Part shown: one piece after another, positions 10,232 to 61,958 of the stretch | How the letters are laid out: every line of letters begins with the position of its first letter | Position numbering within the stretch: position 1 is the stretch's first letter | Virus record (IMG/VR): IMGVR_UViG_3300044712_002452 | Span: 75,336 to 139,335 of that record | From: a virus | Lineage: Duplodnaviria; Heunggongvirae; Uroviricota; Caudoviricetes | Direction: 5' to 3' (one strand) | DNA: 64,000 nucleotides | Program-made: the position numbers and the translations under genes | Notes under the pieces: generated by a model | Database searches by the model: none | Told to the model about the DNA's origin: nothing | Seen by the model: only the letters and a program-made list of their open reading frames with translations

Positions 10232-10326
10232 AGAAATAATAATTTGATGTGAAAAAAAAGGGTGATCTGGTAAATCACCCTTATAAACAGGAACACCTAC
10301 CTTGCATCTGAAAGGGTAGTGTATTT

Positions 10327-20818: not shown

Positions 20819-21478
20819 ATGAAAACCATTCAATTATTTAAGTCTACTTTGAAAACCACTATTCCCAATCTGATGATTGGGCTTTCACTTTTAATGTTTG
20901 CTCTATGGGTACTGGCATCCGGGTGTCAAACGGCTGTAAAAAAAGTTTTGCGGGATCCTGAAAAGTTCAATCAAGTCGCAGATGAAGTGTTTCGTAGGGG
21001 TTTATGCGTCAATGATACGATCGTAACCTACGATACTTCTGGCTACCGAGTGGTTTTTGACACGATTTATACAATTTCTGATACAGGTAGGATTTCTTTA
21101 GAAGGGTTTATTCCAATGATTAACACGGATTCAAGAGATTTTATGAAGCCTGGGGAATTACTTTACAAGCCGGCGGCTACTCCAAAACCGGTTATTCGAA
21201 CCGTTTATCGAGATCGTGATATTATTAAAACACTGACAGTCAAAGACCAAAAAGAACTGGAAACCGCTAAAAAAGACCATGCTAAAGAAATATCCGTGTT
21301 AGAAAAGCGAAAAAATGCCGAGATCAACGCTTTAACGGCAGAACTCAAGCATGTGCGCGGGGTACTCCGAAAGACATCGCTGGTATTATATCCTTTGCTG
21401 ATACTTATATTGATTTGGGGCGGTATTCGGCTTTATCGATTTATTGCTAAGCTGAGCATTCCGGTACCTTTCATTTAA
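20819..21478 (+). CDS. unimolecular-spanin-like lipoprotein
   Basis: Signal peptide plus lipobox LASGC at the N-terminus, and a C-terminal TM LVLYPLLILILIWGGIRLY. Located between holin-like gene and endolysin. Confidence 0.45.
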   Translation: MKTIQLFKSTLKTTIPNLMIGLSLLMFALWVLASGCQTAVKKVLRDPEKFNQVADEVFRRGLCVNDTIVTYDTSGYRVVFDTIYTISDTGRISLEGFIPMINTDSRDFMKPGELLYKPAATPKPVIRTVYRDRDIIKTLTVKDQKELETAKKDHAKEISVLEKRKNAEINALTAELKHVRGVLRKTSLVLYPLLILILIWGGIRLYRFIAKLSIPVPFI

Positions 21479-21489
21479 TACATATCCTT

Positions 21490-21954
21490 ATGAAAGCCAG
21501 TGAAAAAGGGTTAAATCTAATCAAAGAGTTCGAAGCTTTTCGATCTAAAGCCTATTTGTGCCCAGCAGGCGTACCCACCATTGGATATGGTAGCACTTTA
21601 TGGCCAGACGGTAAAAAAGTACGTTTGGGGGAAACAATCACCCTGGATGGAGCTTTAAAGCTACTGAGTATAGAAGCCACGTTCAAAGGTGCTGAAATTC
21701 TAAAATACCTGCATCCTACTCAAATCAATCAGAATCAGTTTGATGCTCTGGTTTCATTTGTATTTAATGTAGGGGTGAAGAATTTTCAAATTTCAAACTT
21801 GGCTCAAAAAGTCAAGAAGAATCCGAACAATCCGCTTATTCGGAATGAATTCATGCGCTGGAATAAACATCGGGATCCTAAAACCCGCCAACGTATAGTA
21901 AGTCGGGGGTTAACTCGCCGGCGAGGGCGAGAAGCCGATTTATACTTCAGTTGA
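21490..21954 (+). CDS. endolysin, T4-type lysozyme (GH24)
   Basis: GLNLIKEFEAFRSKAYLCPAGVPTIGYG matches the GH24 catalytic Glu region and the PTIGYG signature. Confidence 0.85.
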   Translation: MKASEKGLNLIKEFEAFRSKAYLCPAGVPTIGYGSTLWPDGKKVRLGETITLDGALKLLSIEATFKGAEILKYLHPTQINQNQFDALVSFVFNVGVKNFQISNLAQKVKKNPNNPLIRNEFMRWNKHRDPKTRQRIVSRGLTRRRGREADLYFS

Positions 21955-21961
21955 AAATAAA

Positions 21962-21992
21962 AATCCCCGGTGTAAAAGCCGGGGATTTTCGT
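21962..21992. terminator. bidirectional terminator between convergent lysozyme and CobT-like genes
   Basis: AAAAATCCCCGG-TGTAAAAG-CCGGGGATTTT. Confidence 0.6.
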
Positions 21993-24172
21993 TAAATCAC
22001 ATACCCATTTTTATCAATGTTTCGAATACGGTTTCCATCGAACACACAAATTTGACCTCGGGATTGATACTCTTCAACGTTTTTAAAATCGCTGAAATCA
22101 GATCCCGGTAATCCGATAAAATAAGCGTGTGGTGAATAGTAGCATAAATCACTTTCGGCATCGGTAATCACGATACTATTACGCTTGGTTCGCAAAATAT
22201 TGCGCAATACGTCATCCATATTAGTACCATAATTTCCGTCACTGACACTGATTACATTGATCAAATTGAGCTTAACCTCTCTTACATCATCACCAAAAAC
22301 GAATAGTTCTTGAATCAACTCACGTTTAAACAATTTGAATAGCAGGGTTTTGGCAAACATGATCCGCGACATACCAATCGAATGTATTTCATGCCCCATC
22401 GATCCTGAAATATCAATGTAGACATCAATTTTACCTCTTTTGAACTGTTCACGATTTTGGATATCTTCTATGAAGCCGGCGCGAAGTACGGGATGTAGAT
22501 AATGCAAATTTTGGGTATTGTGCAATCGACCTTTTTCAATGAAACCTTCGTAAACCGGTTTACTTAGAGACGAAAAGTAATTCAAAGACTTGTTGAGCAA
22601 GTTTTTGATCAAATTAACGACTTGTTTATCGTTCATTTGTATCTCTGAAAGCTGATTTACCAATTCTTTTATGTGATTTGGGTCATAGGTTTTCAATTCT
22701 TGTGCGGCAGAACGAACAGTATTTGAACCTATATTTTTAAAGGATTCATCCAAATCCGATTTATCATGCATCTTAGATATGTTCTTAAATTCTTCTTTAA
22801 GATCATTATCCAGTTTTTCAAACAAAGGCTTTACAATCGGATTATTTATAAACTCATCCAAAGATTTTGAAAACGGATCAATTAAATCGTTACCCAAACC
22901 CTGGCCCGATTGTTCAGCTTGATTATCAGCGGGTGAATCTCCCATTTCATGAGGATTTGTATCGGCATCTTCACTGTCACCTTCTTGATCGCCGTCTCCG
23001 GTTTGTGTAGAATCACCTGAATCACCAGAATCACCTGAATCATCATCAGACCCATCATCAGAAGCATTATCAGATTCCTCATCGTAGTCATCATTGACGT
23101 CTTCATCGGAGTTTCCGTCAGCATCGGTATCTGAACTATCGTTACTTTGATCGTTTTGATCTGAATCGTTTTGACCAGGTAAATCCATTTCAATCGGGTC
23201 TTCACCATCACCGTCCGATTCATCGAAATCATCAAAATCCATTTGCATTTCGCTTTCAGAATCCCGGCTTTCGTCTCCATCTTCGCCCGGTTGATCAGAT
23301 TCACCGTTTTCATCGGATGGATTTGAAGAATCTGAAGTATCTGCAGGCATCTGATTATCCAAACCGTCTTGTGAGTCATTTGAATTCGATTGATGATCGC
23401 CGGAATCATCATTTTTTGACGTTTCCTCAGAATCATTGTCCGATGAATCATCGGATTGAGGTTTGGGTTGTTTAGGATTAGACTCTTGCGCTTTTTTTTG
23501 TTTTTCTAGTTTCCGAATTTCTTTTTTTGCTTTGTCTTTTGCCTTTTCTACACTTTCATCCGATATATTCTTGTTTTCTTTGATTTTTTTCAATAATTCT
23601 TTGATTTCTTCAGCTAAGTCTTGATTAGATTGACTTATAGACTCATCCAATTGAATCAAGGATATAAAAAACTTCAGATAAGTAGTTTTTACTGAAAAAA
23701 GTGAGAACAAGCTATTCGAATGGGTCATGATTTTCAAACTGGGCTCATTCATTTTCTGAAGAAAACTAAAAGCTGCTTGATTGGTTGGACATCGATTGGC
23801 AAAATGCATATTGGAAAGCTTGTTGTAAAACATATTCCACATATCATAGTGAAATGAGTTTTGAAAGCTTTTTTCGTATAAAACTCCAATTTGATTCACT
23901 TTTTTTTTTATTCTCGCACTGTTTTCTTGGGGAAAAATTTTTGTTAAATCATTAAGCAACAAACCTTCGTAATTGCGAAAATAACTGTCTAACCCTTTTT
24001 GAATACTTTTTCGCACCATTATGCCGGGAGCAGGTCTAACCAACTGTGGATTTAGATCCGCTTTCATTCGAATGCGACTCATGAAATCAAATGTTTTGAC
24101 TTGATGAATCGGTTCGTTTTCAATCAAACTTTGATTGTTAAGTTTGGATTTAATTAATGCCGTTGTTGTCAT
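21992..24172 (-). CDS. vWA-domain protein, CobT-like, with long acidic low-complexity tract
   Basis: C-terminal MIDAS motif DISGSM (vWA). Central region of about 200 aa is mostly D/E/S/N. The start is probably the internal Met MTTTALIK, because ORF start 24208 lies inside a terminator hairpin. Confidence 0.55.
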   Translation of the reverse strand: MTTTALIKSKLNNQSLIENEPIHQVKTFDFMSRIRMKADLNPQLVRPAPGIMVRKSIQKGLDSYFRNYEGLLLNDLTKIFPQENSARIKKKVNQIGVLYEKSFQNSFHYDMWNMFYNKLSNMHFANRCPTNQAAFSFLQKMNEPSLKIMTHSNSLFSLFSVKTTYLKFFISLIQLDESISQSNQDLAEEIKELLKKIKENKNISDESVEKAKDKAKKEIRKLEKQKKAQESNPKQPKPQSDDSSDNDSEETSKNDDSGDHQSNSNDSQDGLDNQMPADTSDSSNPSDENGESDQPGEDGDESRDSESEMQMDFDDFDESDGDGEDPIEMDLPGQNDSDQNDQSNDSSDTDADGNSDEDVNDDYDEESDNASDDGSDDDSGDSGDSGDSTQTGDGDQEGDSEDADTNPHEMGDSPADNQAEQSGQGLGNDLIDPFSKSLDEFINNPIVKPLFEKLDNDLKEEFKNISKMHDKSDLDESFKNIGSNTVRSAAQELKTYDPNHIKELVNQLSEIQMNDKQVVNLIKNLLNKSLNYFSSLSKPVYEGFIEKGRLHNTQNLHYLHPVLRAGFIEDIQNREQFKRGKIDVYIDISGSMGHEIHSIGMSRIMFAKTLLFKLFKRELIQELFVFGDDVREVKLNLINVISVSDGNYGTNMDDVLRNILRTKRNSIVITDAESDLCYYSPHAYFIGLPGSDFSDFKNVEEYQSRGQICVFDGNRIRNIDKNGYVI

Positions 24173-24232
24173 TTTACAATAGTTGAAAAAAGAGCCGATT
24201 GAACTCAATCGGCTCTTTTATGTGATTGATTA

Positions 24233-25375
24233 TTAAACCGTAAACTGATCCGGTACATGGTTTACACCAACTTGTAGCTTACTGGCCATTTCATCGGCAA
24301 TTTTGCTGACATACAGAGCAATCTCATCTACTTCTTCTTCTGTGATGCTGTTGCTAAACTTCAACTTTTGAATTTCATCACCGATTTTAGTAAATTCAAG
24401 ATTTAGCTCTTCCTGGGTTTTGAACGTATAGATCATTTCAGCCATTTGCATCAGCTTCTTCATAGAAGCGCTGTACAAATCATCCACAATTTGAGTGGCG
24501 GCTTCTTTATTGATCATGATCTCGGTCGTTTTTACCACGGCATCTCGCATGGAACAAGACCAAATTTTGGCGATATTCCGTATCAAAGTAGGGGTATAGG
24601 TAAGCGTTCGATCCGAGCAATGATCATATCCGACCTTCAAAAAAGCTTTCAAGTGATCTTTTTGCAATTTTTGATTCACTTCGGTTTTATTGGGTACACC
24701 TAAAATAAAGTGATTTCGATTGCTGCGATCACCGTTCAGCAGGTATTTTTCCATGACATCTTCGTTCAGGCGCTCTACATTGTATTTGAGCACAAATCGA
24801 TCCCAAAACGGATTTTTGCCATCCGATTCATCCGCCGGAATTTCATTGACTGCCGCGACAAAGAGTTTCCATTTACAAGGTATTTTGTCTTTACCGTTGA
24901 AAAGAAAACGTTCGTTCATAACGCCCAGCAGCGCATTTCTGATTTCACTGCTACCTTTATCGATCTCATTGATCACAATTACTTCGGCTTCTGTGATAGG
25001 AGCCAAATGTTGAAACTTGTTTTCGGTCAGCAATTTTTCCAAATCGATCGTACCTTTTACGGCACTTTGATTGGTACCTTCATCAGTTTCCAGAATAAAC
25101 ACGGATTTATTAAACCCCCGCATGGCATTTTCTATGGCCGGCCGGTCAACCGGATTGATGCCGCGTAAAGCATAAGATTTAGCGTAATCCAAAATGGCCC
25201 GGGTTTTAGCGGTTCCCGGATCACCAATTAGTAACAAAGGTAAAGAACAGGCTTCAGCTAAAGCCAACATGCGAAATACTTCTTCTTTACCAACCAGGTT
25301 CGAGTGTATGCTACGCATATCCTGAACGGGTTCTGAAGTCAAAATAGTGGGTTTTGGTGCGATTGTTTCTTGCAT
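24233..25375 (-). CDS. MoxR-family AAA+ ATPase, CobS-like
   Basis: Walker A LLLIGDPGTAKT, Walker B VIVINEID. 380 aa. Confidence 0.65.
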   Translation of the reverse strand: MQETIAPKPTILTSEPVQDMRSIHSNLVGKEEVFRMLALAEACSLPLLLIGDPGTAKTRAILDYAKSYALRGINPVDRPAIENAMRGFNKSVFILETDEGTNQSAVKGTIDLEKLLTENKFQHLAPITEAEVIVINEIDKGSSEIRNALLGVMNERFLFNGKDKIPCKWKLFVAAVNEIPADESDGKNPFWDRFVLKYNVERLNEDVMEKYLLNGDRSNRNHFILGVPNKTEVNQKLQKDHLKAFLKVGYDHCSDRTLTYTPTLIRNIAKIWSCSMRDAVVKTTEIMINKEAATQIVDDLYSASMKKLMQMAEMIYTFKTQEELNLEFTKIGDEIQKLKFSNSITEEEVDEIALYVSKIADEMASKLQVGVNHVPDQFTV

Positions 25376-25395: not shown

Positions 25396-25875
25396 TTACA
25401 GTAATTCAAATCCTTCGATTTCACCCTGATCGGTATCGTCTTGGGAAGGTGTGCCCGCAATAGGCGGAAGGAAACCGGAATTTTCATTTGAATTTTCAGG
25501 CGATAGATCAGTTTCCAAATTCGCTTGTTTAGCTTCGATATCCGGCAGTTGTTCGGTATGGGCACTGAGATCCACCTCATCCAAAGCTTTAGCGCTACGT
25601 TTAGTGCCTTGTGTAACAATGGTCGGTTTATCGATTTCTGTGGGTTTGATTTCTTCCAATCCATTAGAAGGGGTATCATCCACCAACAAAAATTTGACTT
25701 CCGCGGGTTTCAGGTCTTTAAGCAAGGGATGACTAAAGAAGATTTTGGCTTCTTTATCGGTCATTCCGTACTTTTTCTGGATGCTGCCAAAGCCGACATC
25801 ATCTTGTTGAAATTTTACCATGCCGGCTTCTAAGTCCGATACGATCTGACTGAGGGTAATTTTAATTTGAGCCAT
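25396..25875 (-). CDS. hypothetical protein with acidic C-terminal tail ending EGFELL
   Basis: ATG at 25875 verified (MAQIKITL). The ORF-track start 26076 overlaps the upstream gene. The C-terminus shares the FELL tip with the 14417..15304 protein. Confidence 0.45.
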   Translation of the reverse strand: MAQIKITLSQIVSDLEAGMVKFQQDDVGFGSIQKKYGMTDKEAKIFFSHPLLKDLKPAEVKFLLVDDTPSNGLEEIKPTEIDKPTIVTQGTKRSAKALDEVDLSAHTEQLPDIEAKQANLETDLSPENSNENSGFLPPIAGTPSQDDTDQGEIEGFELL

Positions 25876-25903: not shown

Positions 25904-26704
25904 TTAAATAGCAGGAGCTGAAGCTGGTTGATAGAAGCTGATCGCGCTGAAGGGGTCTTTGCTGATGAGCTGTTCGTTGATTCGGGTAAATAATCGGTCC
26001 GGGTTCCAGCCACTATTTGCATAAGTTGCTCCAACGAGTGGGTGTGTTCGAGTAAAGACGGTGTGCTTGGTTTCATCGATGTACACAGTTAATGTTTGCG
26101 CTTTAGCCCCCAGGAAAACGAAAATCAATCCGTCTTTCCGGCTTGAAAGCTCATGTAATAAATAGGCGATAAAAGGCTGCCAGATTTCGGCATGGGTGTG
26201 GTGTTTACCGATTTCTACCGTCAATGGATAATTTAACAGTAACACGCCTTGTTTTGCCAAATAAGTCAAATCTTGAGCATACTTAAACTCTTCTTCCGGA
26301 ATGATTTCGCCCAAAGCGTCTGTACGAACGCCCATCATAAATTGCTGCAGGGCCAAATGAGGTTCATTTTCAGGAAAATTGCTGCAGCTAAAAAGCATAC
26401 CGTCCGACTGATTGGGTAAATTATAGGGGTCGTTTCCAACAATTACCACCTTGAGTTGGTCGATCGGACAGTTTTCAAAAGCTGCAAAAGTGGTTTTTAA
26501 AGGCGGCGTAAACCGTTTTCCACTCACAGACAAAGACTGCAGAGATTTCAAAATTTGAACCATTTCATCACTGAAAAGGAACGTTTTCAAGAAATCCCGC
26601 CATCCGGAAGCCGTTAGTTTATCAGCTAATTTGGCAGCTATGTCTTTAAAATACTGCGGATTGGTGCTAGGCGCGGCGGGCGCTACGGGAGTTTGTGTCT
26701 TCAT
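25904..26704 (-). CDS. uracil-DNA glycosylase superfamily protein (family-1-like)
   Basis: VVIVGNDPY...SDG resembles the UNG GQDPYH water-activating loop. THPLVGA resembles HPSPLS. Confidence 0.5.
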   Translation of the reverse strand: MKTQTPVAPAAPSTNPQYFKDIAAKLADKLTASGWRDFLKTFLFSDEMVQILKSLQSLSVSGKRFTPPLKTTFAAFENCPIDQLKVVIVGNDPYNLPNQSDGMLFSCSNFPENEPHLALQQFMMGVRTDALGEIIPEEEFKYAQDLTYLAKQGVLLLNYPLTVEIGKHHTHAEIWQPFIAYLLHELSSRKDGLIFVFLGAKAQTLTVYIDETKHTVFTRTHPLVGATYANSGWNPDRLFTRINEQLISKDPFSAISFYQPASAPAI

Positions 26705-26710
26705 TTTTTA

Positions 26711-26727
26711 TTTATATTTGTAGAATT
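26711..26727 (+). promoter_or_regulatory. promoter, TATATTTGTAGAATT
   Basis: 27 nt upstream of the ATG at 26743. A TTTG lies about 18 nt further upstream. Confidence 0.5.
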
Positions 26728-26742
26728 AACAAAACGATTAAT

Positions 26743-27081
26743 ATGTCTACTGTACAAGTGATTAAACCGGAAACCATCTTATCTGTAGAGATTTCTGGCT
26801 ATATGTTGCAAAAACTGCAAGGGAACTTATTGAGCTTCTATAATGCTTTACCTGCTGAAAAACAAAAGGCTCTTCAAGAGATTCTTTCAGATGAAAAACG
26901 CATTTTAGAAGACCAAGATGAAACGCTGGATATAGCGGTCAATTTGATGGCCATCATTACGGCAGCCGAAGAATATGCTCGTGAAAAAGGATTAATTGTA
27001 GAAGAAGAATTTATCATTCCTGACCCAGAATTGGAAAACTCCGATTTGAAACAAAATCCATCCACTGTTGAACAATCGTAA
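26743..27081 (+). CDS. hypothetical protein
   Basis: Start MSTVQV, 27 nt downstream of the TATATTTGTAGAATT promoter motif. Confidence 0.45.
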   Translation: MSTVQVIKPETILSVEISGYMLQKLQGNLLSFYNALPAEKQKALQEILSDEKRILEDQDETLDIAVNLMAIITAAEEYAREKGLIVEEEFIIPDPELENSDLKQNPSTVEQS

Positions 27082-32565: not shown

Positions 32566-32587
32566 AAAAAAGGTTTAAAATAAAAAC

Positions 32588-32612
32588 CCCGGACCAGGAA
32601 TAGTCCGGGGGA
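32588..32612 (-). terminator. terminator of tmRNA gene
   Basis: CCCCGGAC-caggaatagt-CCGGGGG, followed on the minus strand by TTTTTATTTT. Confidence 0.55.
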
Positions 32613-53705: not shown

Positions 53706-53720
53706 AATCCTTATCCTATG
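53706..53720 (+). promoter_or_regulatory. late-gene start-context motif AATCCTTATCCTATG
   Basis: The same motif abuts the ATG of terL (53718), the portal gene (55958, ATATCCTATG), the capsid gene (60176) and the gene at 63812. Confidence 0.45.
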
Positions 53721-55943
53721 AATCCTATCCTAACTGCGGCGGCAACGCCGTTTAAAGAAGTGCCGTATCTGGATGCCGATACCGGCATTTGGTCCACTCG
53801 ACTTTTTGACACCCGAGAACATTTTGTTTCCTTTCTCTGGTCTTGTTTCAAAGAACCGGGCAAATATGAGTTCGATCAGTCCGTTTTTAATATCAATGAA
53901 GAAGGCCGGAAATTTCAAGCCCGTAATTATTACACTTCACTGGTTCCCAAAACCAAAGACTGGAAGCATTACTGGGATACCCAAAAGCTTCGCTCCCGTC
54001 AAGGGGTCGTTTTAACCCACCAAGGGAAGACCTGGTATTTTACGCGGGATTACTACATGTGGTTGAACTTCTTACCCATCTACCACAAAGAAAAAAAGGT
54101 GTTTGCTTTTCCGGCTATTCGAGACGTTCAATATCATATTGCGCTATTCGAAACGATCGCTGAATACACTTTTAAGCATGTGGTATTGCTTAAAAAACGG
54201 CAGATTGCCTCTTCTTATTTCCACGCCGGCAAGCTCATCAACGGCTTTTGGTTTGAAGAAGGATTTGTGGGTAAGATGGGTGCTTCGCTTAAAGACTACA
54301 TCAATGAAAAAGGTACTTGGCTGTTTTTAAACGAATACTCCAACTTTCTCAACACCCACACGGCTTGGTACCGGCCTATGAATCCGGGAAAAGTGTTTGC
54401 TTGGGTGCAGCAAGTAGAAGTCAAAAACAACGGGCGTACGCAAACGCGCGGTTTGAAATCCCGCATTTCGGGTATGTCTTTTGAAAAAGACCCGACCAAT
54501 GGTGTAGGTGGACCTTGTACTTTTTTCTTCCATGAAGAAGGGGGTATTGCGCCACAAGCCGATACTACTTATGAGTTCATTCGACCCGCTATGCAGGATG
54601 GATTTATCACAACCGGTCTATTTGCTTTAGCGGGTTCAGTGGGTGATCTGGATCAATGTAAGCCGCTGGAAAAATACTTGAAGAACCCAATGGGGAACGG
54701 ATTTTTAGGGGTGGAAACAGATCTCTTTAATTCCAAAGGGGAACGCCGGGTATGCGGTTTGTTTATTCCCGAACAGTGGGGTATGCCGCCATTCATTGAC
54801 CCATATGGAAACTCCATGGTGAAAGAAGCCTTGGAAGCCATTATGGAACAACGGGCGGAATGGAAAAAAGACTTGGAGCCGCAGGAATATCAACTGCGGA
54901 TTTCGCAGGGGCCCATTAACATTGAAGAAGCCTTTGCTACCCGAAAGCTCTCCAAATTTCCGGCACATATCCTGCAAGCCGAAATTCAAAAAATAGAAGA
55001 CAAGACTTATCCCACTGAATACCTGGAACTCTACCGAACCGAACAAAACAAGATTCAGGCGCGTACCAGCCGGCGAACGCCGATCGTGGATTTTCCCATC
55101 AGTGCCAAAACCGAAAACAAAGAAGGGGTGCTAGTAGTGCACGAGCGGCCGGTGGAAAATGCGCCTTGGGGAAGCTACTATGCATCCATTGACCCGGTAG
55201 GTGAAGGTAAAACCACAACCTCGGATTCGCTTTGTACTATTTACGTTTACCGGGTTCCGACCGAAGTAGCGGTGTACCGCTCGGATGGCTCGCTCAATCA
55301 CACCCGTATTGATGGGGATTATGTGGTCGCGCATTGGTGCGGACGTTACGATGATATCAAAGACACCCACGAAATGCTGGAAATGATCATTGAGTGGTAC
55401 AATGCTTGGGCGCTAGTGGAAGCCAACGTCAGCTTGTTTATCAATTACATGATCACCCAGAAAAAGCAAAAATACTTGGTACCCAAAGACCAGATTGTTT
55501 TCTTAAAAGAACTGAGTGCCAACCAATCGAGCTATCAGGATTACGGATGGAAAAACACCGGCACTTTTTTCAAAACCAATTTGCTGAGTTATCTCATTGA
55601 GTTTATCAAAGAAGTGGTGAACAACGACTTTGACGAAAACGGAAAGGTAATAGAAGCCAGTAAAAAATTTGGGGTTTGCCGGATTCGAGATAAAATGGCT
55701 TTGGTAGAAGCCCTGGCTTATCAGGATGGACTCAACGTGGACCGATTGGTGGCACTGGCCGCTCTGATTGCTTTTGTCAAATTGCAGACTGCCAACCGAG
55801 GTTACAAGAAAATCAAAGAGTATGAAACCCCTTTGGTAGATACTCAAAAAAAGGCTAATTTATTAGTAAGGCAACCTTTTCGAAATCTGGAACGTGGGCG
55901 ATCCACGCAGGGTATTCGTAGACGACCTTTCAAAAATTTATAA
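53718..55943 (+). CDS. terL: terminase large subunit
   Basis: Deviant Walker A VLTHQGKT (T4 gp17 has SRQLGKT). C-terminal RNaseH-like nuclease motifs YASIDPVGEG and WALVEANVS. Gene order TerL-portal-scaffold-MCP. Confidence 0.65.
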   Translation: MNPILTAAATPFKEVPYLDADTGIWSTRLFDTREHFVSFLWSCFKEPGKYEFDQSVFNINEEGRKFQARNYYTSLVPKTKDWKHYWDTQKLRSRQGVVLTHQGKTWYFTRDYYMWLNFLPIYHKEKKVFAFPAIRDVQYHIALFETIAEYTFKHVVLLKKRQIASSYFHAGKLINGFWFEEGFVGKMGASLKDYINEKGTWLFLNEYSNFLNTHTAWYRPMNPGKVFAWVQQVEVKNNGRTQTRGLKSRISGMSFEKDPTNGVGGPCTFFFHEEGGIAPQADTTYEFIRPAMQDGFITTGLFALAGSVGDLDQCKPLEKYLKNPMGNGFLGVETDLFNSKGERRVCGLFIPEQWGMPPFIDPYGNSMVKEALEAIMEQRAEWKKDLEPQEYQLRISQGPINIEEAFATRKLSKFPAHILQAEIQKIEDKTYPTEYLELYRTEQNKIQARTSRRTPIVDFPISAKTENKEGVLVVHERPVENAPWGSYYASIDPVGEGKTTTSDSLCTIYVYRVPTEVAVYRSDGSLNHTRIDGDYVVAHWCGRYDDIKDTHEMLEMIIEWYNAWALVEANVSLFINYMITQKKQKYLVPKDQIVFLKELSANQSSYQDYGWKNTGTFFKTNLLSYLIEFIKEVVNNDFDENGKVIEASKKFGVCRIRDKMALVEALAYQDGLNVDRLVALAALIAFVKLQTANRGYKKIKEYETPLVDTQKKANLLVRQPFRNLERGRSTQGIRRRPFKNL

Positions 55944-55957
55944 TCCGGAGATATCCT

Positions 55958-58735
55958 ATGAGAGTACTCAATGCGCTGCAAATCAAAAATGGAGTCGGTG
56001 TCGGTCAAAGACGCTCCGGTACAACTTTGCTTACCCGACCCCTAAACTTCGTATCTGAAACGGAGAAAGATGAAGACTGGGCTATGGATCACATGGACTG
56101 GCTGGAAGAAGAAGGTATCAATCAGATTCGGCGTAAAGCGCCCAGCATGCTCAAAAAGTATCGATTGGCGCAAGGGGTGATTGATCGCAGCGATTATATT
56201 CCCGATGAATCCTGTAATGAGCATGCGGAACTCATTGACTTGCTCACCCGCAACGAAGAAAACACACCCAGCAAACTAAAATTCTATCCCATCATACCCA
56301 ATGTGATGCGGATCCTGCTTACCGAATTTGCCAAACGTCGATCCAAATTAGAGTTTCGGGCCATTGATACTTTATCTCAAAACGAGATCATCCGCAAAAA
56401 GACCAGTGAAATTGAAGAAGTCTTGATGTCAGAAGCTTACCAGAAGCAGCTTTTGTCGATGATGGAAATGGGTTATCAGCCGGATGATGAAGAAGTGGTA
56501 CAAGCCCTTAGTGCGGACAATTTAAAAAAACTCCCTGAAATTGAAGAGTATTACCGCCGGGATTATAAAAGCGACTATGAACTCTGGGCCAATGTCCAGC
56601 ATGCCGCAGATGTCGAGCGTTTTTGTTTTGATGAAAAAGAATTAATCGCTTACGGTGATTACCTGACAGTTGGAGAACAATATTGGCATTACCGGATGAT
56701 GGAAGACGACTATGAAGTGGAACTCTGGAATCCGGTGTTTACGTTTTCGCATAAAAGCGTCGACAAAAAATATGTGAGCGAAGGCAATTTTGTCGGAAAT
56801 ATTCAGCTCATGCCTTTTGCAGATGCCATTGACGCCTATGGTTATTTGATGGGTGACATGGATTTTGAAGATATGGAGCAACGCAATTTCCGGCACGTTT
56901 CGGGAAATAGCAATCTGTACAGCTCTAACACCCAAAATGACGGGTCGATGTACGACAGTTCCAAGTCTTATGAATGGAATACCAATCTGCCGGGCGTGGC
57001 CATGCGCCAATACTTAGATGCCCGCGGACGGTTTAACTCTTCGGATTTTATGGATGAGATTATCAATGGTTCCGGATACCAGGATCCCTTTGATACTTAT
57101 TCCGAAGATTTGGTGCGGGTATCTACAATGTATTGGATCTCCCAGCGAAAAGTGGGTATTCTAACTGAACAGCTCGGGCCGGGCATGCCGGTGACTAAAC
57201 TTGTGACTGAACAATTTAGTGTTACCCATCAGCCTATTTACAATACCACGGTTTTCACTGAAAAAAGCGAACTCAATTTGGTGTATGGTCAGCACGTAAA
57301 CTGGTTCTGGATCAAAGACCTTTGGGGTGGCGTGAAGATTTCACCCAATATGGCACCGGCCCGGCTGCGTGGTAGCAATACTTCTTTTGAACCGATTTAC
57401 CTGGGTATCGATTCCAAGAAACCCAGTCGCATGCGGTTTCAACCCAAAGGATATTCCGGTAAATATTCGGTTTGTCTGCCAGTAGAAGGATTGACAGGTA
57501 CGGCCCGAAATTCGGAAATCCGCACGCCGGTCGATTTAATGACCCCTTCTCAACTGCAATTCAATATGGTCAATAACCAAATTGCAGATATCATGATCGA
57601 TGAGAAAGGACAAGTGATGTTGCTCGATCATAATGCTTTACCCAAAAATTCAATGGGTGAAGAGTGGGGGCATGGTAATTTGGCAAAAGCCTATGCGGCT
57701 ATGCAAGATTTTGGAATCTTGCCTTTGGATACCGTGATTTCCAATACCGAAAACGCTTTGAATTTCTCTCACTACCAGGTGTTGAATTTCGAAGAAACCA
57801 ATCGTTTGCTCGGTAGAATACAACTGGCCGCTTATTTCAAGCAAGAAGCTTATTCAACTCTGGGTATCAACCCGCAGCGTATTGGCGGTGAAACCGGCCG
57901 GCAAACAGCTAAAGGCGTAGAAGAAAACCTCAACGCTTCTTACAACCAAACGGAAACTTGGTTTATCGAACACTGTGATCATTTGATGCCTCGGGTTCAC
58001 CAAATGCGGACCAATTTTGCTCAATACTATCATTCATCTAAATCCAGTTTTCGACTGCAAGTACTGACTTCCAATAGTCAGCGCAAGATGTTTGAGTTCT
58101 CCGGCGAACAATTAAACGGGCGGGATATTCACGTGTACGCGGTTACCAAAAGCAATCGCCGGGAAACTATGCGTAAACTCGAGTCTTTGGCCATCAACAA
58201 CAATACGACCGGCGGATCCTTGAATGATTTGGGATCACTGATGAACGCAGAAAGCCTGATCGAAATGACGGATGCTCTGGCACGGATTGAACAAAAGCAA
58301 CAGGCGGCGCTGGAAGCTGAGCGTGCCCACGAAAAAGAAATTGAACAGATGCGCATGCAAGAGCAAGCCGCTATTCGGGATAAAGAACTGGCCCAAGAGA
58401 AACAAATTGCAGACGATAAAAACAAGACCGATATCATCACCAGCGAAATCAAAGCGGCGGGATATGGTTCTATGGAAGATATCAATGCCAATCAGCAAAG
58501 TGATTACCTGGATGCCCTTGACCGGATTCAGGCTTCCGAGCAGTACCGGGATACCATGGACTTTAAACGGGAGCAAGAGCGCAATAAGATTCAAGTGGCT
58601 AGAGAGCAACTGAACCAGAAAATGCAGGATCGTGCGAGCAAAGAGCGGATTGCTGACAAACAACTTCAGGTTGCACGTGAAAACAAAAACAAGTACGACG
58701 TAGAAAAAAAGAAAAAAGCTAACGCAAAAAAATAA
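55958..58735 (+). CDS. portal protein with Lys/Glu/Gln-rich coiled-coil C-terminal extension
   Basis: 925 aa, lies between TerL and scaffold. The last about 150 aa are a highly charged coiled coil. Confidence 0.5.
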   Translation: MRVLNALQIKNGVGVGQRRSGTTLLTRPLNFVSETEKDEDWAMDHMDWLEEEGINQIRRKAPSMLKKYRLAQGVIDRSDYIPDESCNEHAELIDLLTRNEENTPSKLKFYPIIPNVMRILLTEFAKRRSKLEFRAIDTLSQNEIIRKKTSEIEEVLMSEAYQKQLLSMMEMGYQPDDEEVVQALSADNLKKLPEIEEYYRRDYKSDYELWANVQHAADVERFCFDEKELIAYGDYLTVGEQYWHYRMMEDDYEVELWNPVFTFSHKSVDKKYVSEGNFVGNIQLMPFADAIDAYGYLMGDMDFEDMEQRNFRHVSGNSNLYSSNTQNDGSMYDSSKSYEWNTNLPGVAMRQYLDARGRFNSSDFMDEIINGSGYQDPFDTYSEDLVRVSTMYWISQRKVGILTEQLGPGMPVTKLVTEQFSVTHQPIYNTTVFTEKSELNLVYGQHVNWFWIKDLWGGVKISPNMAPARLRGSNTSFEPIYLGIDSKKPSRMRFQPKGYSGKYSVCLPVEGLTGTARNSEIRTPVDLMTPSQLQFNMVNNQIADIMIDEKGQVMLLDHNALPKNSMGEEWGHGNLAKAYAAMQDFGILPLDTVISNTENALNFSHYQVLNFEETNRLLGRIQLAAYFKQEAYSTLGINPQRIGGETGRQTAKGVEENLNASYNQTETWFIEHCDHLMPRVHQMRTNFAQYYHSSKSSFRLQVLTSNSQRKMFEFSGEQLNGRDIHVYAVTKSNRRETMRKLESLAINNNTTGGSLNDLGSLMNAESLIEMTDALARIEQKQQAALEAERAHEKEIEQMRMQEQAAIRDKELAQEKQIADDKNKTDIITSEIKAAGYGSMEDINANQQSDYLDALDRIQASEQYRDTMDFKREQERNKIQVAREQLNQKMQDRASKERIADKQLQVARENKNKYDVEKKKKANAKK

Positions 58736-60175: not shown

Positions 60176-61801
60176 ATGGCAACTCCCGTTCTTAATAACG
60201 GTATTTTCTTGCGGGAAGTTTCTTACGAAACTACCGCCCATGTGGATTCTTATCACCTCTACAACCTCATCGGGAAAGATGCCATGACGGATCTGGGTCC
60301 GGTAGAGTTGTTTGCCCACGCGCAAAAGGTAGAAATACCTTTGTATCAGATGGCAAGCTTTGGCGGTAAGAATGTCATCATGGTTCAAAACAGTCGTGGT
60401 GAATTCAAATGGGATATTCCCATTCTGCAAGATTTGCCAACGTTCATGGAAGACATCGAACCCGGTAACACCGAAAAGGGTCGTGATGGTAGCACCTTCA
60501 AAGTGAAAGTAAGCCGTCGGGCCTTCTCTCACGGAGATGTGTTTTCTTATGACAAATACAACGGTGTCGAAATTTACATCACCGATGAAGACATCCTGGA
60601 TGGTGGTGATAAAGCCGTGATTTACACGTGTCGCTTGGTCAACAACGACAACGCGAAGTTTCTGGACAACAAGTACATCAAGCATGGTACCAAGTTGTTC
60701 CGTAAGACTTCTGCCAAATCCGGCGAGTACGGTGAGAAGTTCTCTGATTTGGGTAACCAAACGGCCGGACACCGTGAGTACTACAACTATGTAGGGGGTG
60801 CCGAAGCACACTGTCATTTCCATATTTCGTCTAAGGCGGATATGATGGCAAAAGGTGGTTTGCTCAACAATGGCCGGGTGCCGGTAACGGAACTCTGGCG
60901 TTCATTCGACAGCAACTTGGATCCTTCCATCCGCAGCTTGGATGAAATGGCCAAAAAAATGGGTAAGGACTACATGAAAAAGTCTTACGAAAAAGGTACT
61001 CTGGTACGCAATTTCGTGACCACCATCGAATCCAAGTGTATTCAAAAAGTCGCCAACGACATCGAAAGTTACGCGATGTGGGGTCATGGTGGTCGTCTGC
61101 GTCAAGACGGGCCTGATGATTTCCGTTTGAGCGTAGGTCTTTGGAAGCAATTGGATAACGCCTGGAAGAAGAAGTATAACAAAGGTGCTTTCACCATGGA
61201 CTTCTTCAAGGGTGAAATTTTCAACTTCTTCGCAGGTCGCGTAAGTTTTGAAGGTCCGGATCCTAAGCGTAAACTGATCGTTCAAACCGGTATAGCGGGT
61301 ATGCGCGTAGTAAGTGCTGCCATCGAGCGTTATGCATTCGCTTCCAATCTGGTGATGAATGCTACGGAGCTGGGTGCGATCACCGGTAAGGGTATGAACC
61401 TAGACTTCGGTTTTGCGTTCACTTCTTTCACCATTCCGTATCTGGCAAACGTTCAGTTCGTATTGAACCCTGCTTTTGACAGCGTTCATACCAACGATAT
61501 TGAAAACCCGATCATTGACGGTCATCCGCTGAGCTCTTACAGCTTTGTGATCTTTGACGTTACCGATCAAGGTTCTGACAATATCTTCTTGCTCAAATGG
61601 GCGCATGACCATGAATTGAAGTGGTTCTACCAAAATGGTACCATGGACTACATGGGTCGTTCAACCGGATTTGCATCTACCGGCCTGTTCTCAGGTTACA
61701 AGGTGTATATGCAACAAACCATGCCGGCCATTTGGGTTAAAGACCCAACTCGCGTGTTGAAGATCGTGATGACCAATCCGATCACAGGCGGTTCACTGTA
61801 A
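60176..61801 (+). CDS. major capsid protein candidate
   Basis: 541 aa. Highly-expressed-gene codon bias (GGT/CGT/AAG). Followed by the strongest terminator in the window. Confidence 0.55.
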   Translation: MATPVLNNGIFLREVSYETTAHVDSYHLYNLIGKDAMTDLGPVELFAHAQKVEIPLYQMASFGGKNVIMVQNSRGEFKWDIPILQDLPTFMEDIEPGNTEKGRDGSTFKVKVSRRAFSHGDVFSYDKYNGVEIYITDEDILDGGDKAVIYTCRLVNNDNAKFLDNKYIKHGTKLFRKTSAKSGEYGEKFSDLGNQTAGHREYYNYVGGAEAHCHFHISSKADMMAKGGLLNNGRVPVTELWRSFDSNLDPSIRSLDEMAKKMGKDYMKKSYEKGTLVRNFVTTIESKCIQKVANDIESYAMWGHGGRLRQDGPDDFRLSVGLWKQLDNAWKKKYNKGAFTMDFFKGEIFNFFAGRVSFEGPDPKRKLIVQTGIAGMRVVSAAIERYAFASNLVMNATELGAITGKGMNLDFGFAFTSFTIPYLANVQFVLNPAFDSVHTNDIENPIIDGHPLSSYSFVIFDVTDQGSDNIFLLKWAHDHELKWFYQNGTMDYMGRSTGFASTGLFSGYKVYMQQTMPAIWVKDPTRVLKIVMTNPITGGSL

Positions 61802-61854: not shown

Positions 61855-61926
61855 AGCGGGGTAGAGCAGAGGTAGCTCGTTAGGCTCATAACCTAAAGGC
61901 CGGTGGTTCGATCCCATCTCCCGCTA
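61855..61926 (+). tRNA. tRNA-Met (CAT anticodon; elongator or Ile-lysidine type)
   Basis: Cloverleaf: acceptor AGCGGGG/TCCCGCT, D-arm GAGC-AGAGGTA-GCTC, anticodon arm TTAGG-CTCATAA-CCTAA, T-arm GGTGG-TTCGATC-CCATC. Confidence 0.75.
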
Positions 61927-61958
61927 CTGATTCGATAAACCAACACAACCACTTCACT

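Follow-up and report, generated by a model that had tools for sequence, protein, structure and literature searches.

The question that this locus raises is what a phage would do with a MoxR-class AAA+ ATPase and, directly beside it, a protein in which a long acidic tract precedes a C-terminal vWA domain. The two genes are adjacent on the minus strand of an uncultured crAss-like phage and were analysed within a stretch of 64,000 nucleotides, referred to here as the window (Table 1). An initial annotation had compared them with the cobaltochelatase pair CobS and CobT, while favouring a chaperone or remodeller over cobalamin synthesis, and a chaperone or remodeller role is the best-supported reading. 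MoxR-vWA pairs are established chaperone/co-chaperone systems, viruses included (PMC7159879, PMC7824862), and we put at about 0.6 the probability that this one works as a two-component chaperone or remodelling module specific to phages. It is a real chaperone pair, ordinary in kind, and an uncharacterised phage-only variant of a well-known kind. The CobS/CobT label holds at the superfamily level only, and the pair is very probably not a vitamin B12 enzyme.

Table 1. Features of the MoxR-vWA locus, in window coordinates
Feature	Position	Strand	Basis
MoxR-class AAA+ ATPase gene, 380 aa	24233-25375	minus	Pfam bpMoxR/AAA_5, nearest solved protein RavA, motif conservation
Intrinsic-terminator-like hairpin between ATPase stop and vWA gene start	24186-24219	minus	sequence, fold, scan
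vWA/MIDAS partner gene, 726 aa plus stop	21992-24172	minus	ORF, start-codon context, JGI call P0277, family search
Partner N-terminal half, residues 1-240	23453-24172	minus	
Partner acidic low-complexity tract, judged disordered, residues 241-430	22883-23452	minus	composition; variable equivalent linker in family
Partner helical stalk (predicted), residues about 431-575	22448-22882	minus	alignment A1; helices H206-H304 of P0126 model
Partner C-terminal vWA domain, residues about 576-726	21995-22447	minus	
Second terminator hairpin, after vWA gene stop	21961-21988	minus	custom hairpin scan
Small conserved gene, 159 aa, directly upstream of ATPase	25396-25875	minus	relatives at same position, JGI call

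Both open reading frames lie on the minus strand where they had been placed, the partner frame running from 21992 to 24208 and encoding 738 aa when it is read from a TTG codon. The ATPase belongs to the MoxR/AAA_5 class: its best-scoring Pfam model is bpMoxR (PF20030, 86.4 bits against a cut-off of 27), and AAA_5 scores 48.8 bits against a cut-off of 22. The nearest solved protein in a search of PDB sequences is RavA (E = 2e-8 with the single sequence, 1e-11 with a profile), which is also the only solved relative found by sequence. McrB, a clade that the initial annotation had raised as a competing assignment, is absent among the Pfam, NCBIfam, PHROG and PADLOC matches, bpMoxR, AAA_5 and RavA being found instead; PADLOC returned no match to the ATPase.

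The motifs of the ATPase are a Walker A of GDPGTAKT (residues 51-58, 25202-25225), sensor-1 at N177, an Arg finger at R193 (FWDRF) and sensor-2 at R256 (SDRTL), and these are kept, together with the catalytic Glu, across 120 ATPase homologues. At the Walker B position the sequence is NEIDK (residues 136-140, 24956-24970), with Asn replacing the usual Asp. This residue, N136, falls opposite the Asp of LDEIW in the alignment with RavA and is Asn in all 120 homologues, so that instead of being a motor the ATPase may hydrolyse slowly or serve as a nucleotide-gated switch.

The neighbouring protein was correctly described as a vWA protein; the vWA domain is C-terminal, and with the ATPase the protein forms the architecture class that also holds CobS and CobT. 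Its MIDAS site is made up of D587-x-S589-x-S591 (within DISGSM, 22397-22414), T650 and D671, all five residues being invariant in 129 sequences, and the structure model predicts a Rossmann-like vWA fold together with an all-alpha N-terminal half. The prediction for residues 1-47 is of very low confidence (pLDDT < 50); the all-alpha domain that is modelled after them ends in a Lys-rich helix (residues 191-240). Conserved positions in this domain are P47, D110 (invariant in 70/70), N131, K147 and T150, and the stalk carries conserved NYFSS and LHP motifs. The N-terminal half has no Pfam match and no recognisable relative. An unrelated enzymatic domain there, which had been considered beforehand, was not seen: the region is predicted to be all-helical, and an HExxH motif occurs in none of the 137 full-length members.

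The partner matches no Pfam VWA family at E <= 1, its profile found nothing significant among PDB sequences, and the 70 family members scanned gave a single weak DUF2201 vWA-like match and no DUF2201_N match; judged on these searches, the family is too divergent for current VWA models. Weak Pfam matches of the partner to PPV_E2_N, DsrD and FliT, and a PHROG match to a 'major head protein', were rejected as being below threshold or on low-complexity sequence. One further model, phrog_1314, matches 21 of the 70 family members over the vWA half, a region for which its label 'HNH endonuclease' is probably wrong.

An exhaustive HMM search gave an uncurated partner family of 353 cluster representatives, and more than 900 relatives of the ATPase were found; all of the partner clusters and ATPase relatives come from uncultured phages. 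The exhaustive search was needed to see the family, because word-indexed searches with the full partner and with the alignment minus the tract each yielded just 4 matches among the 8000 candidates sharing most words, a list that we suspect was filled by low-complexity matches. Among 185,579 species genomes in cellular collections there were 3 matches, each of them on a MAG contig, and the family appears to be phage-specific and essentially absent from cellular genomes. The 50,697 phage records searched gave no match to the region by megablast and none to the vWA domain or to three family members by tblastn, so that no cultured relative of the partner turned up in this way. A search of the literature on crAss-like phages gave nothing relevant on MoxR or vWA genes.

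Of 12 related loci examined, 11 (L001-L004 and L006-L012) have a bpMoxR ATPase called immediately upstream of the partner, the twelfth, L005, having just a 71-aa gene called at the ATPase position. The pair is found within the replication modules of two phage groups: the window also has SF2 helicase, UDG, DnaB, primase, exonuclease and DNA polymerase genes, and in the marine group it comes directly after a primase homologue. The small gene upstream of the ATPase encodes a protein with a folded-looking domain of ~70 aa at its N terminus and a tail that is acidic. No match to it was found in Pfam or PHROG; its counterparts at the corresponding place in L006, L009 and L011 share 27-35% identity with it. 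JGI also calls it at 159 aa, and its product is a possible third component of the module.

Between the two genes the initial annotation had placed a terminator hairpin at 24194-24222. The hairpin is real and canonical, with a 14-bp stem, a 4-nt loop and a T-run (AAAAGAGCCGATTG-AGTT-CAATCGGCTCTTTT followed by further T on the minus strand), and its position needed correction (Table 1). A 91-nt region here folds at -25.4 kcal/mol (z = -5.65), none of 200 shuffles folding as well, and the hairpin sequence occurs once in the window. A custom scan found just four perfect-stem, T-tailed hairpins in the 64 kb, among them this one and a second between the stop of the vWA gene and a convergent lysozyme gene, so that the vWA gene is bracketed. 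The built-in terminator scan detected neither, since part of the T-run in each is paired within the stem, and Rfam contains no known RNA family at either site. At the same intergenic position in relatives there are strong hairpins in L006 (z = -7.3) and L009 (z = -5.3), and none between the two genes of L011.

The hairpin had also been said to cover the annotated start of the partner gene. It does contain the TTG at 24208, which is probably not the real start: because the stem swallows this codon, the first ATG, at 24172, is the likely one, and the JGI gene call P0277 on the same contig starts there. Most likely the intergenic terminator would allow partial read-through of transcripts and leave the adaptor scarcer than the ATPase. 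Less adaptor than ATPase would be expected, because one or few adaptors would serve each hexamer. RavA is likewise more abundant than ViaA, with ~350 and ~90 molecules per cell, respectively (PMC3893208).

A poly-acidic tract of about 200 residues had been described in the partner, and a tract of 190 aa is indeed present. Its composition (54 D, 18 E, 32 S, 20 G, 16 N and 13 Q) makes it about 38% acidic low-complexity sequence rather than pure poly-acid; there are 72 D/E against 2 K/R, for a net charge of -70. The underlying DNA contains short repeats of 9-12 nt only, for example one coding GDSGDSGDS, and an alternative-frame ORF of 189 aa that overlaps the tract (22882-23451) most likely arises incidentally from the GAT-rich repeat. 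Among 115 full-length relatives an acidic run is present at the same position in 63 and absent in 52. Across the family the linker has a median length of 40 aa and a range of 0-211 aa, with just 4 relatives reaching 100 aa and that of the window partner being the second longest; in L011 the region is partly Q/P-rich. In our judgement the tract is disordered, and it is most likely a flexible spacer, by analogy with the D/E-rich region of Rea1, rather than a DNA mimic.

Four other explanations for the pair were weighed. Were it a viral cobaltochelatase, its genes would be auxiliary metabolic genes that hijack host CobN and raise cobalamin for replication. The architecture, a MoxR-clade AAA+ ATPase with a C-terminal vWA/MIDAS protein, is shared with CobS and CobT, viral cobST clusters are reported as widespread in tailed viruses, and cyanophage cobT is usually annotated as a peptidase (PMC8651126); a Foldseek comparison with viral models did return cyanophage 'metallopeptidase' vWA proteins at E = 3.5e-5, but at a TM score of about 0.2. 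The resemblance noted initially does not extend to families: neither protein matched a CobS or CobT family in Pfam and NCBIfam at E <= 1, nor did the 70 family members at E <= 0.01, the best matches being bpMoxR and RavA. No Prochlorococcus or Synechococcus phage was listed at E <= 1e-5 when the ATPase was searched by tblastn against the 50,697 phage records. The largest ORF in the window, at 925 aa, matches a portal family, so there is no CobN-sized candidate in the window, and we regard a cobaltochelatase role as extremely improbable. The tract had also prompted the proposal of a DNA-mimic or histone-like-binding function, for which we found no positive evidence. The tract would here be a polyanion that sequesters restriction enzymes or HU-like nucleoid proteins, with the ATPase recycling the complex; its charge and the position of the gene among DNA-metabolism genes would suit this, and some negative charge seems to be selected, because the acidic linker recurs in more than half of the relatives. 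The idea is weakened because the tract is a hypervariable linker, unconstrained in length and sequence and absent from many relatives, with a low-complexity D, S, G and N composition. Known DNA mimics such as Ocr and ArdA, in contrast, are folded and carry charges at fixed spacing. PADLOC gave no significant match (none to the ATPase and one weak match to the partner, E = 0.0078), and the invariant parts of the partner are the MIDAS residues and not the tract, all of which makes DNA mimicry improbable.

Two explanations remain. A virion-assembly chaperone would mature or extend a structural part, as do the MoxR ATPase p618 and the vWA protein p892 of Acidianus two-tailed virus (ATV) or as proposed for a MoxR-vWA pair of T4-like jumbo phages. 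Of the MoxR-vWA pairs of viruses, the only one studied experimentally acts in the development of the tail, as cited in PMC7824862 and PMC7159879, and the tblastn relatives of the ATPase in phage records include archaeal-virus MoxR ATPases, among them those of ATV and Sulfolobus monocaudavirus. Against this, both phage groups carry the pair inside replication modules, the genes for terminase, portal and capsid lie ~30 kb off on the other strand, and the jumbo-phage metallopeptidase domain is absent; a part in virion assembly is accordingly doubtful. A counter-defence decoy, in which a captured bpMoxR-type ATPase and its vWA partner jam host MoxR-vWA conflict systems, is favoured by the top Pfam match of the ATPase, to bpMoxR, which was defined on MoxR-vWA-beta-propeller conflict systems (PMC7159879). 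Neither the partner model nor the family Pfam scans showed a beta-propeller, VMAP or effector domain, however, and the PADLOC results are as poor for this as for mimicry. The near absence of the family from cellular genomes gives no hint that it was captured recently, an intact and invariant MIDAS site is what a working adaptor would be expected to have, and there is very little likelihood that the pair is a decoy.

For the chaperone module we propose the following mechanism. By homology, the ATPase would form a RavA-like AAA+ ring and the 726-aa partner would be its adaptor, whose invariant MIDAS metal site would grip an acidic residue on a client protein. ATP-driven movements of the ring would pass via the helical stalk, pulling or re-shaping the client. 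Because of its variability across the family and the Rea1 analogy, the tract would be a disordered spacer, free to vary in length, that joins the N-terminal helical domain to a stalk-plus-MIDAS head; more speculatively, it may hold the head away from DNA or itself occupy the MIDAS site. As the pair moves as a unit inside the replication modules of two phage groups, our best guess is that it acts in the replication or host-takeover phase, for example by assembling or recycling a phage or host protein complex, rather than in cobalt insertion; for the client itself a place in a replication module is weak evidence. A more specific version, which we consider a long shot, is a replication-phase protein-stripping machine in which the polyanionic spacer would draw basic DNA-bound host nucleoid or phage proteins, the MIDAS head would lock on, and the Asn-Walker-B ring would be the nucleotide-gated switch that removes them from DNA. 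If that were so, phage replication modules would own a dedicated chaperone whose acidic region expands and contracts between lineages.

MoxR-vWA pairs are widespread and their clients mostly unknown, while those of phages are usually annotated as CobS/CobT and tallied as metabolic genes in virome surveys. The present locus cautions against calling such pairs B12 genes, every CobS/CobT profile test having failed. Alone it opens no major unsolved question. As far as sequence comparison can tell, what is notable in this phage-only family is the combination of an invariant MIDAS, an unusual Walker B Asn and a freely variable acidic spacer, and the coupling of a MIDAS adaptor, with its disordered acidic tether, to an AAA+ ring could be studied here in a compact system of two proteins.

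Among known systems, RavA-ViaA of E. coli has the same two-gene operon layout, in which the MoxR ATPase comes first and the second protein joins an N-terminal domain to a vWA/MIDAS domain at the C terminus. The phage ATPase, however, scores 42 bits against the NCBIfam RavA equivalog cut-off of 681, the match to RavA spans the AAA+ core only (residues 23-221 of 380; 12-195 of the profile), the Walker B reads NE where RavA has DE, and no sequence kinship of the partner with ViaA was found in Pfam, NCBIfam or solved structures. Adjacent MoxR-clade ATPase and vWA genes are also the arrangement of the viral CobS/CobT clusters (PMC8651126) and of the T4-like/jumbo MoxR-vWA-metallopeptidase pair (PMC7824862), to which models in BFVD suggest a weak full-length structural resemblance; the phage partner family differs from the latter in having neither a DUF2201_N match nor HExxH. 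ATV p618 (MoxR) and p892 (vWA) are likewise a virus-encoded pair with a chaperone role, and the ATPases are 27% identical over 54% of the query (tblastn, E = 5e-7), whereas no similarity was found between p892 and the phage partner. ATV is moreover an archaeal virus whose pair the cited work links to extracellular tail development, and the present pair lies in a replication module. The bpMoxR conflict systems (Kaur et al. 2020) are alike in the ATPase (86 bits) and differ in the beta-propeller fused to the vWA protein and the attached effectors, both absent here.

Two comparisons bear on the linker. [quoted passage not shown] In Rea1 (midasin) the order is helical linker, D/E-rich flexible region and MIDAS (PMC6286127), which the layout of the partner matches, except that in the partner a helical stalk separates the acidic tract from the vWA domain. 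Rea1 is a eukaryotic protein of ~5000 aa in which six AAA+ modules are fused in one chain, whereas here the putative ring and its adaptor are encoded by separate phage genes.

The best-supported reading of the pair is a MoxR-vWA chaperone and co-chaperone. The ATPase scores above the Pfam cut-offs of both bpMoxR (86 bits) and AAA_5 (49 bits), and its match to the RavA equivalog is weak and confined to the core (42 bits, cut-off 681). Among solved structures, sequence searches recovered no relative other than RavA. RavA, YifB and Rex were the only NCBIfam models listed for the ATPase, CobS not being among them, and PADLOC gave no entry for it. Walker A, the catalytic Glu, the sensor-1 Asn, the Arg finger (FWDRF) and sensor-2 (SDRTL) are conserved. 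The Walker B Asp, which corresponds to the Asp of the RavA LDEIW motif, is replaced by Asn (NE[IV]DK) in 120/120 retrieved homologues, including relatives of only 38-39% identity from a different phage group; the ATPase itself has NEIDK at residues 136-140 (24956-24970, minus strand). Judged from sequence, an Asn at this position may lead to slow hydrolysis or switch-like behaviour.

About 85 of the 120 ATPase homologues (within the retrieved proteins P0006-P0124) have an acidic tail followed by a C-terminal x-Pro-Phe (NPF, DPF, SPF or LPF), which looks like a conserved docking motif; the window ATPase ends in PDQFTV (24233-24250). Many relatives, P0019, P0029 and P0038 among them, carry an extra N-terminal extension of 90-190 aa with the conserved motif RPSPT(D/E)SAT.Y..GT..GNDGN.W.V...GV.RW, which is absent from the window ATPase.

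The partner, a vWA/MIDAS protein, begins with a segment of very low prediction confidence (residues 1-47, pLDDT < 50), followed by an all-helical region with a Lys-rich helix at its end (~48-240), the acidic tract (241-430), a second helical region with conserved NYFSS and LHP motifs (431-575) and an alpha/beta domain (576-726). The tract contains 54 D, 18 E, 32 S, 20 G and 2 K/R in 190 aa, a net charge of -70. Both genes lie on the minus strand. The adjacent ATPase/vWA pair with an acidic tract described in the initial annotation is confirmed, and its interpretation there is partly supported. No enzyme signature was found in the N-terminal half of the partner: HExxH occurs in 0/137 family members, a domain scan of 70 members gave no match to this half, and a low-confidence stand-alone model returned only weak helical-bundle matches. 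An ORF in an alternative frame coincides almost exactly with the tract; it most likely arises from the stop-free, GAT-rich repeat and is no gene of its own.

The initial annotation also placed a terminator hairpin between the two genes, covering the annotated partner start. The hairpin is well supported: the 91-nt region has a folding energy of -25.4 kcal/mol (z = -5.65), which none of the shuffles matched, and TTG 24208 does fall within the hairpin stem. That TTG is probably not the actual start, as the JGI call on the same contig is a 726-aa product starting at the first ATG, 24172, which on this evidence we take as the start of the partner. A custom scan of the whole 64 kb found no more than four perfect-stem, T-tailed hairpins. 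All four are on the minus strand, and the vWA gene is bracketed by two of them. With only ~13 nt between the T-run of the intergenic hairpin and ATG 24172, any transcript of the partner gene has to cross the hairpin, a layout suggestive of attenuation. At the same intergenic position, 2/3 relatives tested likewise have a strong hairpin, of different sequence. The vWA gene and the lysozyme gene converge on the hairpin downstream of the former; this hairpin may work in both directions.

Coordinates of the ATPase/partner pair, the hairpins and other features of the window
Feature	Coordinates	Strand	Remarks
ATPase gene	24233-25375	-	380 aa; upstream gene of the pair
Partner ORF	TTG 24208 to 21992	-	ORF call; downstream gene of the pair
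Intergenic hairpin	24186-24219	-	perfect 14-bp stem + T-run; 24188-24219 in custom scan
Hairpin downstream of vWA gene	21961-21988	-	custom scan
Hairpin	10258-10282	-	custom scan
Hairpin	32587-32610	-	custom scan
Alternative-frame ORF	22882-23451	-	189 aa
Gene directly upstream of ATPase	25396-25875	-	159 aa
Two-gene cassette	20819-21954	+	219-aa ORF and phage lysozyme
Small ORF	26695-27081	+	between SF2 helicase block and UDG gene
Terminase large subunit	53718-55943		
Portal	55958-58735		
Major head protein	60176-61801		
tRNA-Met (CAT)	61855-61927	+	directly 3' of major head protein gene

The window is phage DNA, with genes for a terminase large subunit, portal and major head protein together with genes for a DNA polymerase, primase, DnaB-type helicase, exonucleases, UDG, SF2 helicase and lysozyme. 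The terminase shares only ~24% identity with those of crAss-like, Flavobacterium and Cellulophaga phages, and no GenBank phage matched the region at the DNA level, which together point to a divergent, uncultured crAss-like phage as the source. In view of the crAss-like terminase, its host is probably a member of the Bacteroidota. Public metagenome contigs of ~139 kb carry the same genes. The plus-strand cassette is set among minus-strand replication genes and its 219-aa product appears, by eye, to be membrane-anchored; in the related locus L011 a muramidase gene is likewise opposite in orientation, just past the vWA gene. The small plus-strand ORF has a counterpart in related loci L006-L011, where a small opposite-strand gene (87-95 aa) lies at the equivalent place.

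Searched exhaustively with a profile, 1.84 billion representative proteins yielded 353 relatives of the partner, ~420-790 aa long, 168 of them at E <= 1e-30. A scan of 185,579 cellular species genomes found three loci, every one on MAG contigs; the family is, in practice, phage-only. Of 70 family members, 21 matched the PHROG profile phrog_1314 over their vWA half, the match covering profile positions 134-384 of 394 (best E = 3.6e-13). The profile carries the label 'HNH endonuclease', which is probably wrong at least for these positions.

The initial annotation raised the possibility of a DNA-mimic or histone-like-binding function, of which the DNA-mimic idea gained no positive support and against which the variability of the tract counts. 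Using a net charge <= -10 in 40-aa windows as the criterion, an acidic run is present in 63 of 115 full-length relatives, with a median of 40 aa; only four have runs of at least 100 aa, the partner's own being second longest at 206 aa by this criterion. The runs examined lie in the same place, ~80-205 residues (mostly ~145-170) before the MIDAS motif. In L006 and L009 the equivalent of the tract is nearly absent, and at the linker position of the L011 protein (P0168, 7187-9523, 778 aa) ~100 Q/P-rich residues precede ~190 D/E-rich ones, suggesting that the spacer can vary in composition and length. The MIDAS residues are invariant across the family and the tract is not, a pattern we read as that of a disordered spacer in which charge would be under selection, and sequence and length would not.

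In 11/12 related loci the gene call immediately upstream of the partner is a bpMoxR ATPase; in L005, the exception, the only call there is a 71-aa gene. Relatives of the window phage keep the order SF2 helicase, small gene, UDG, small gene, ATPase, partner, while in a marine phage group the pair comes after a primase homologue (24% identity, E = 3e-10) in a module with DnaB, AAA_24, primase, exonuclease and RNR. The consistent pairing and these two replication-gene settings argue that the two genes travel as a unit within replication modules, and because of this context a virion-assembly role as in ATV, though possible, is rated lower. The comparison with CobS/CobT made in the initial annotation, which had itself suggested a possible chaperone or remodeller, holds for architecture, and the chaperone reading is supported. 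Membership was rejected: no CobS or CobT profile in Pfam or NCBIfam matched either protein of the pair, none matched 70 family members, the organism list of the ATPase tblastn search included no Prochlorococcus or Synechococcus phage, and no window ORF is CobN-sized, the largest being 925 aa. The 159-aa gene upstream of the ATPase keeps its position in related phages (27-35% identity). Its product combines a conserved ~70-aa domain (SQI..DL..G...DD.G.GSIQ.KY) with an acidic tail that closes on a hydrophobic motif; it matches nothing in Pfam or PHROG, and may belong to the module as a third component.

Both the layout of the partner and the pair as a whole have parallels. [quoted passage not shown] MoxR-vWA chaperone/co-chaperone pairs are an established kind of system (PMC7159879), with viral precedents in ATV p618/p892, a jumbo-phage MoxR-vWA-peptidase pair and 'CobST' clusters. 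The kind itself is already known, and what is new here is an uncurated, phage-specific variant of a two-component AAA+/MIDAS remodeller.
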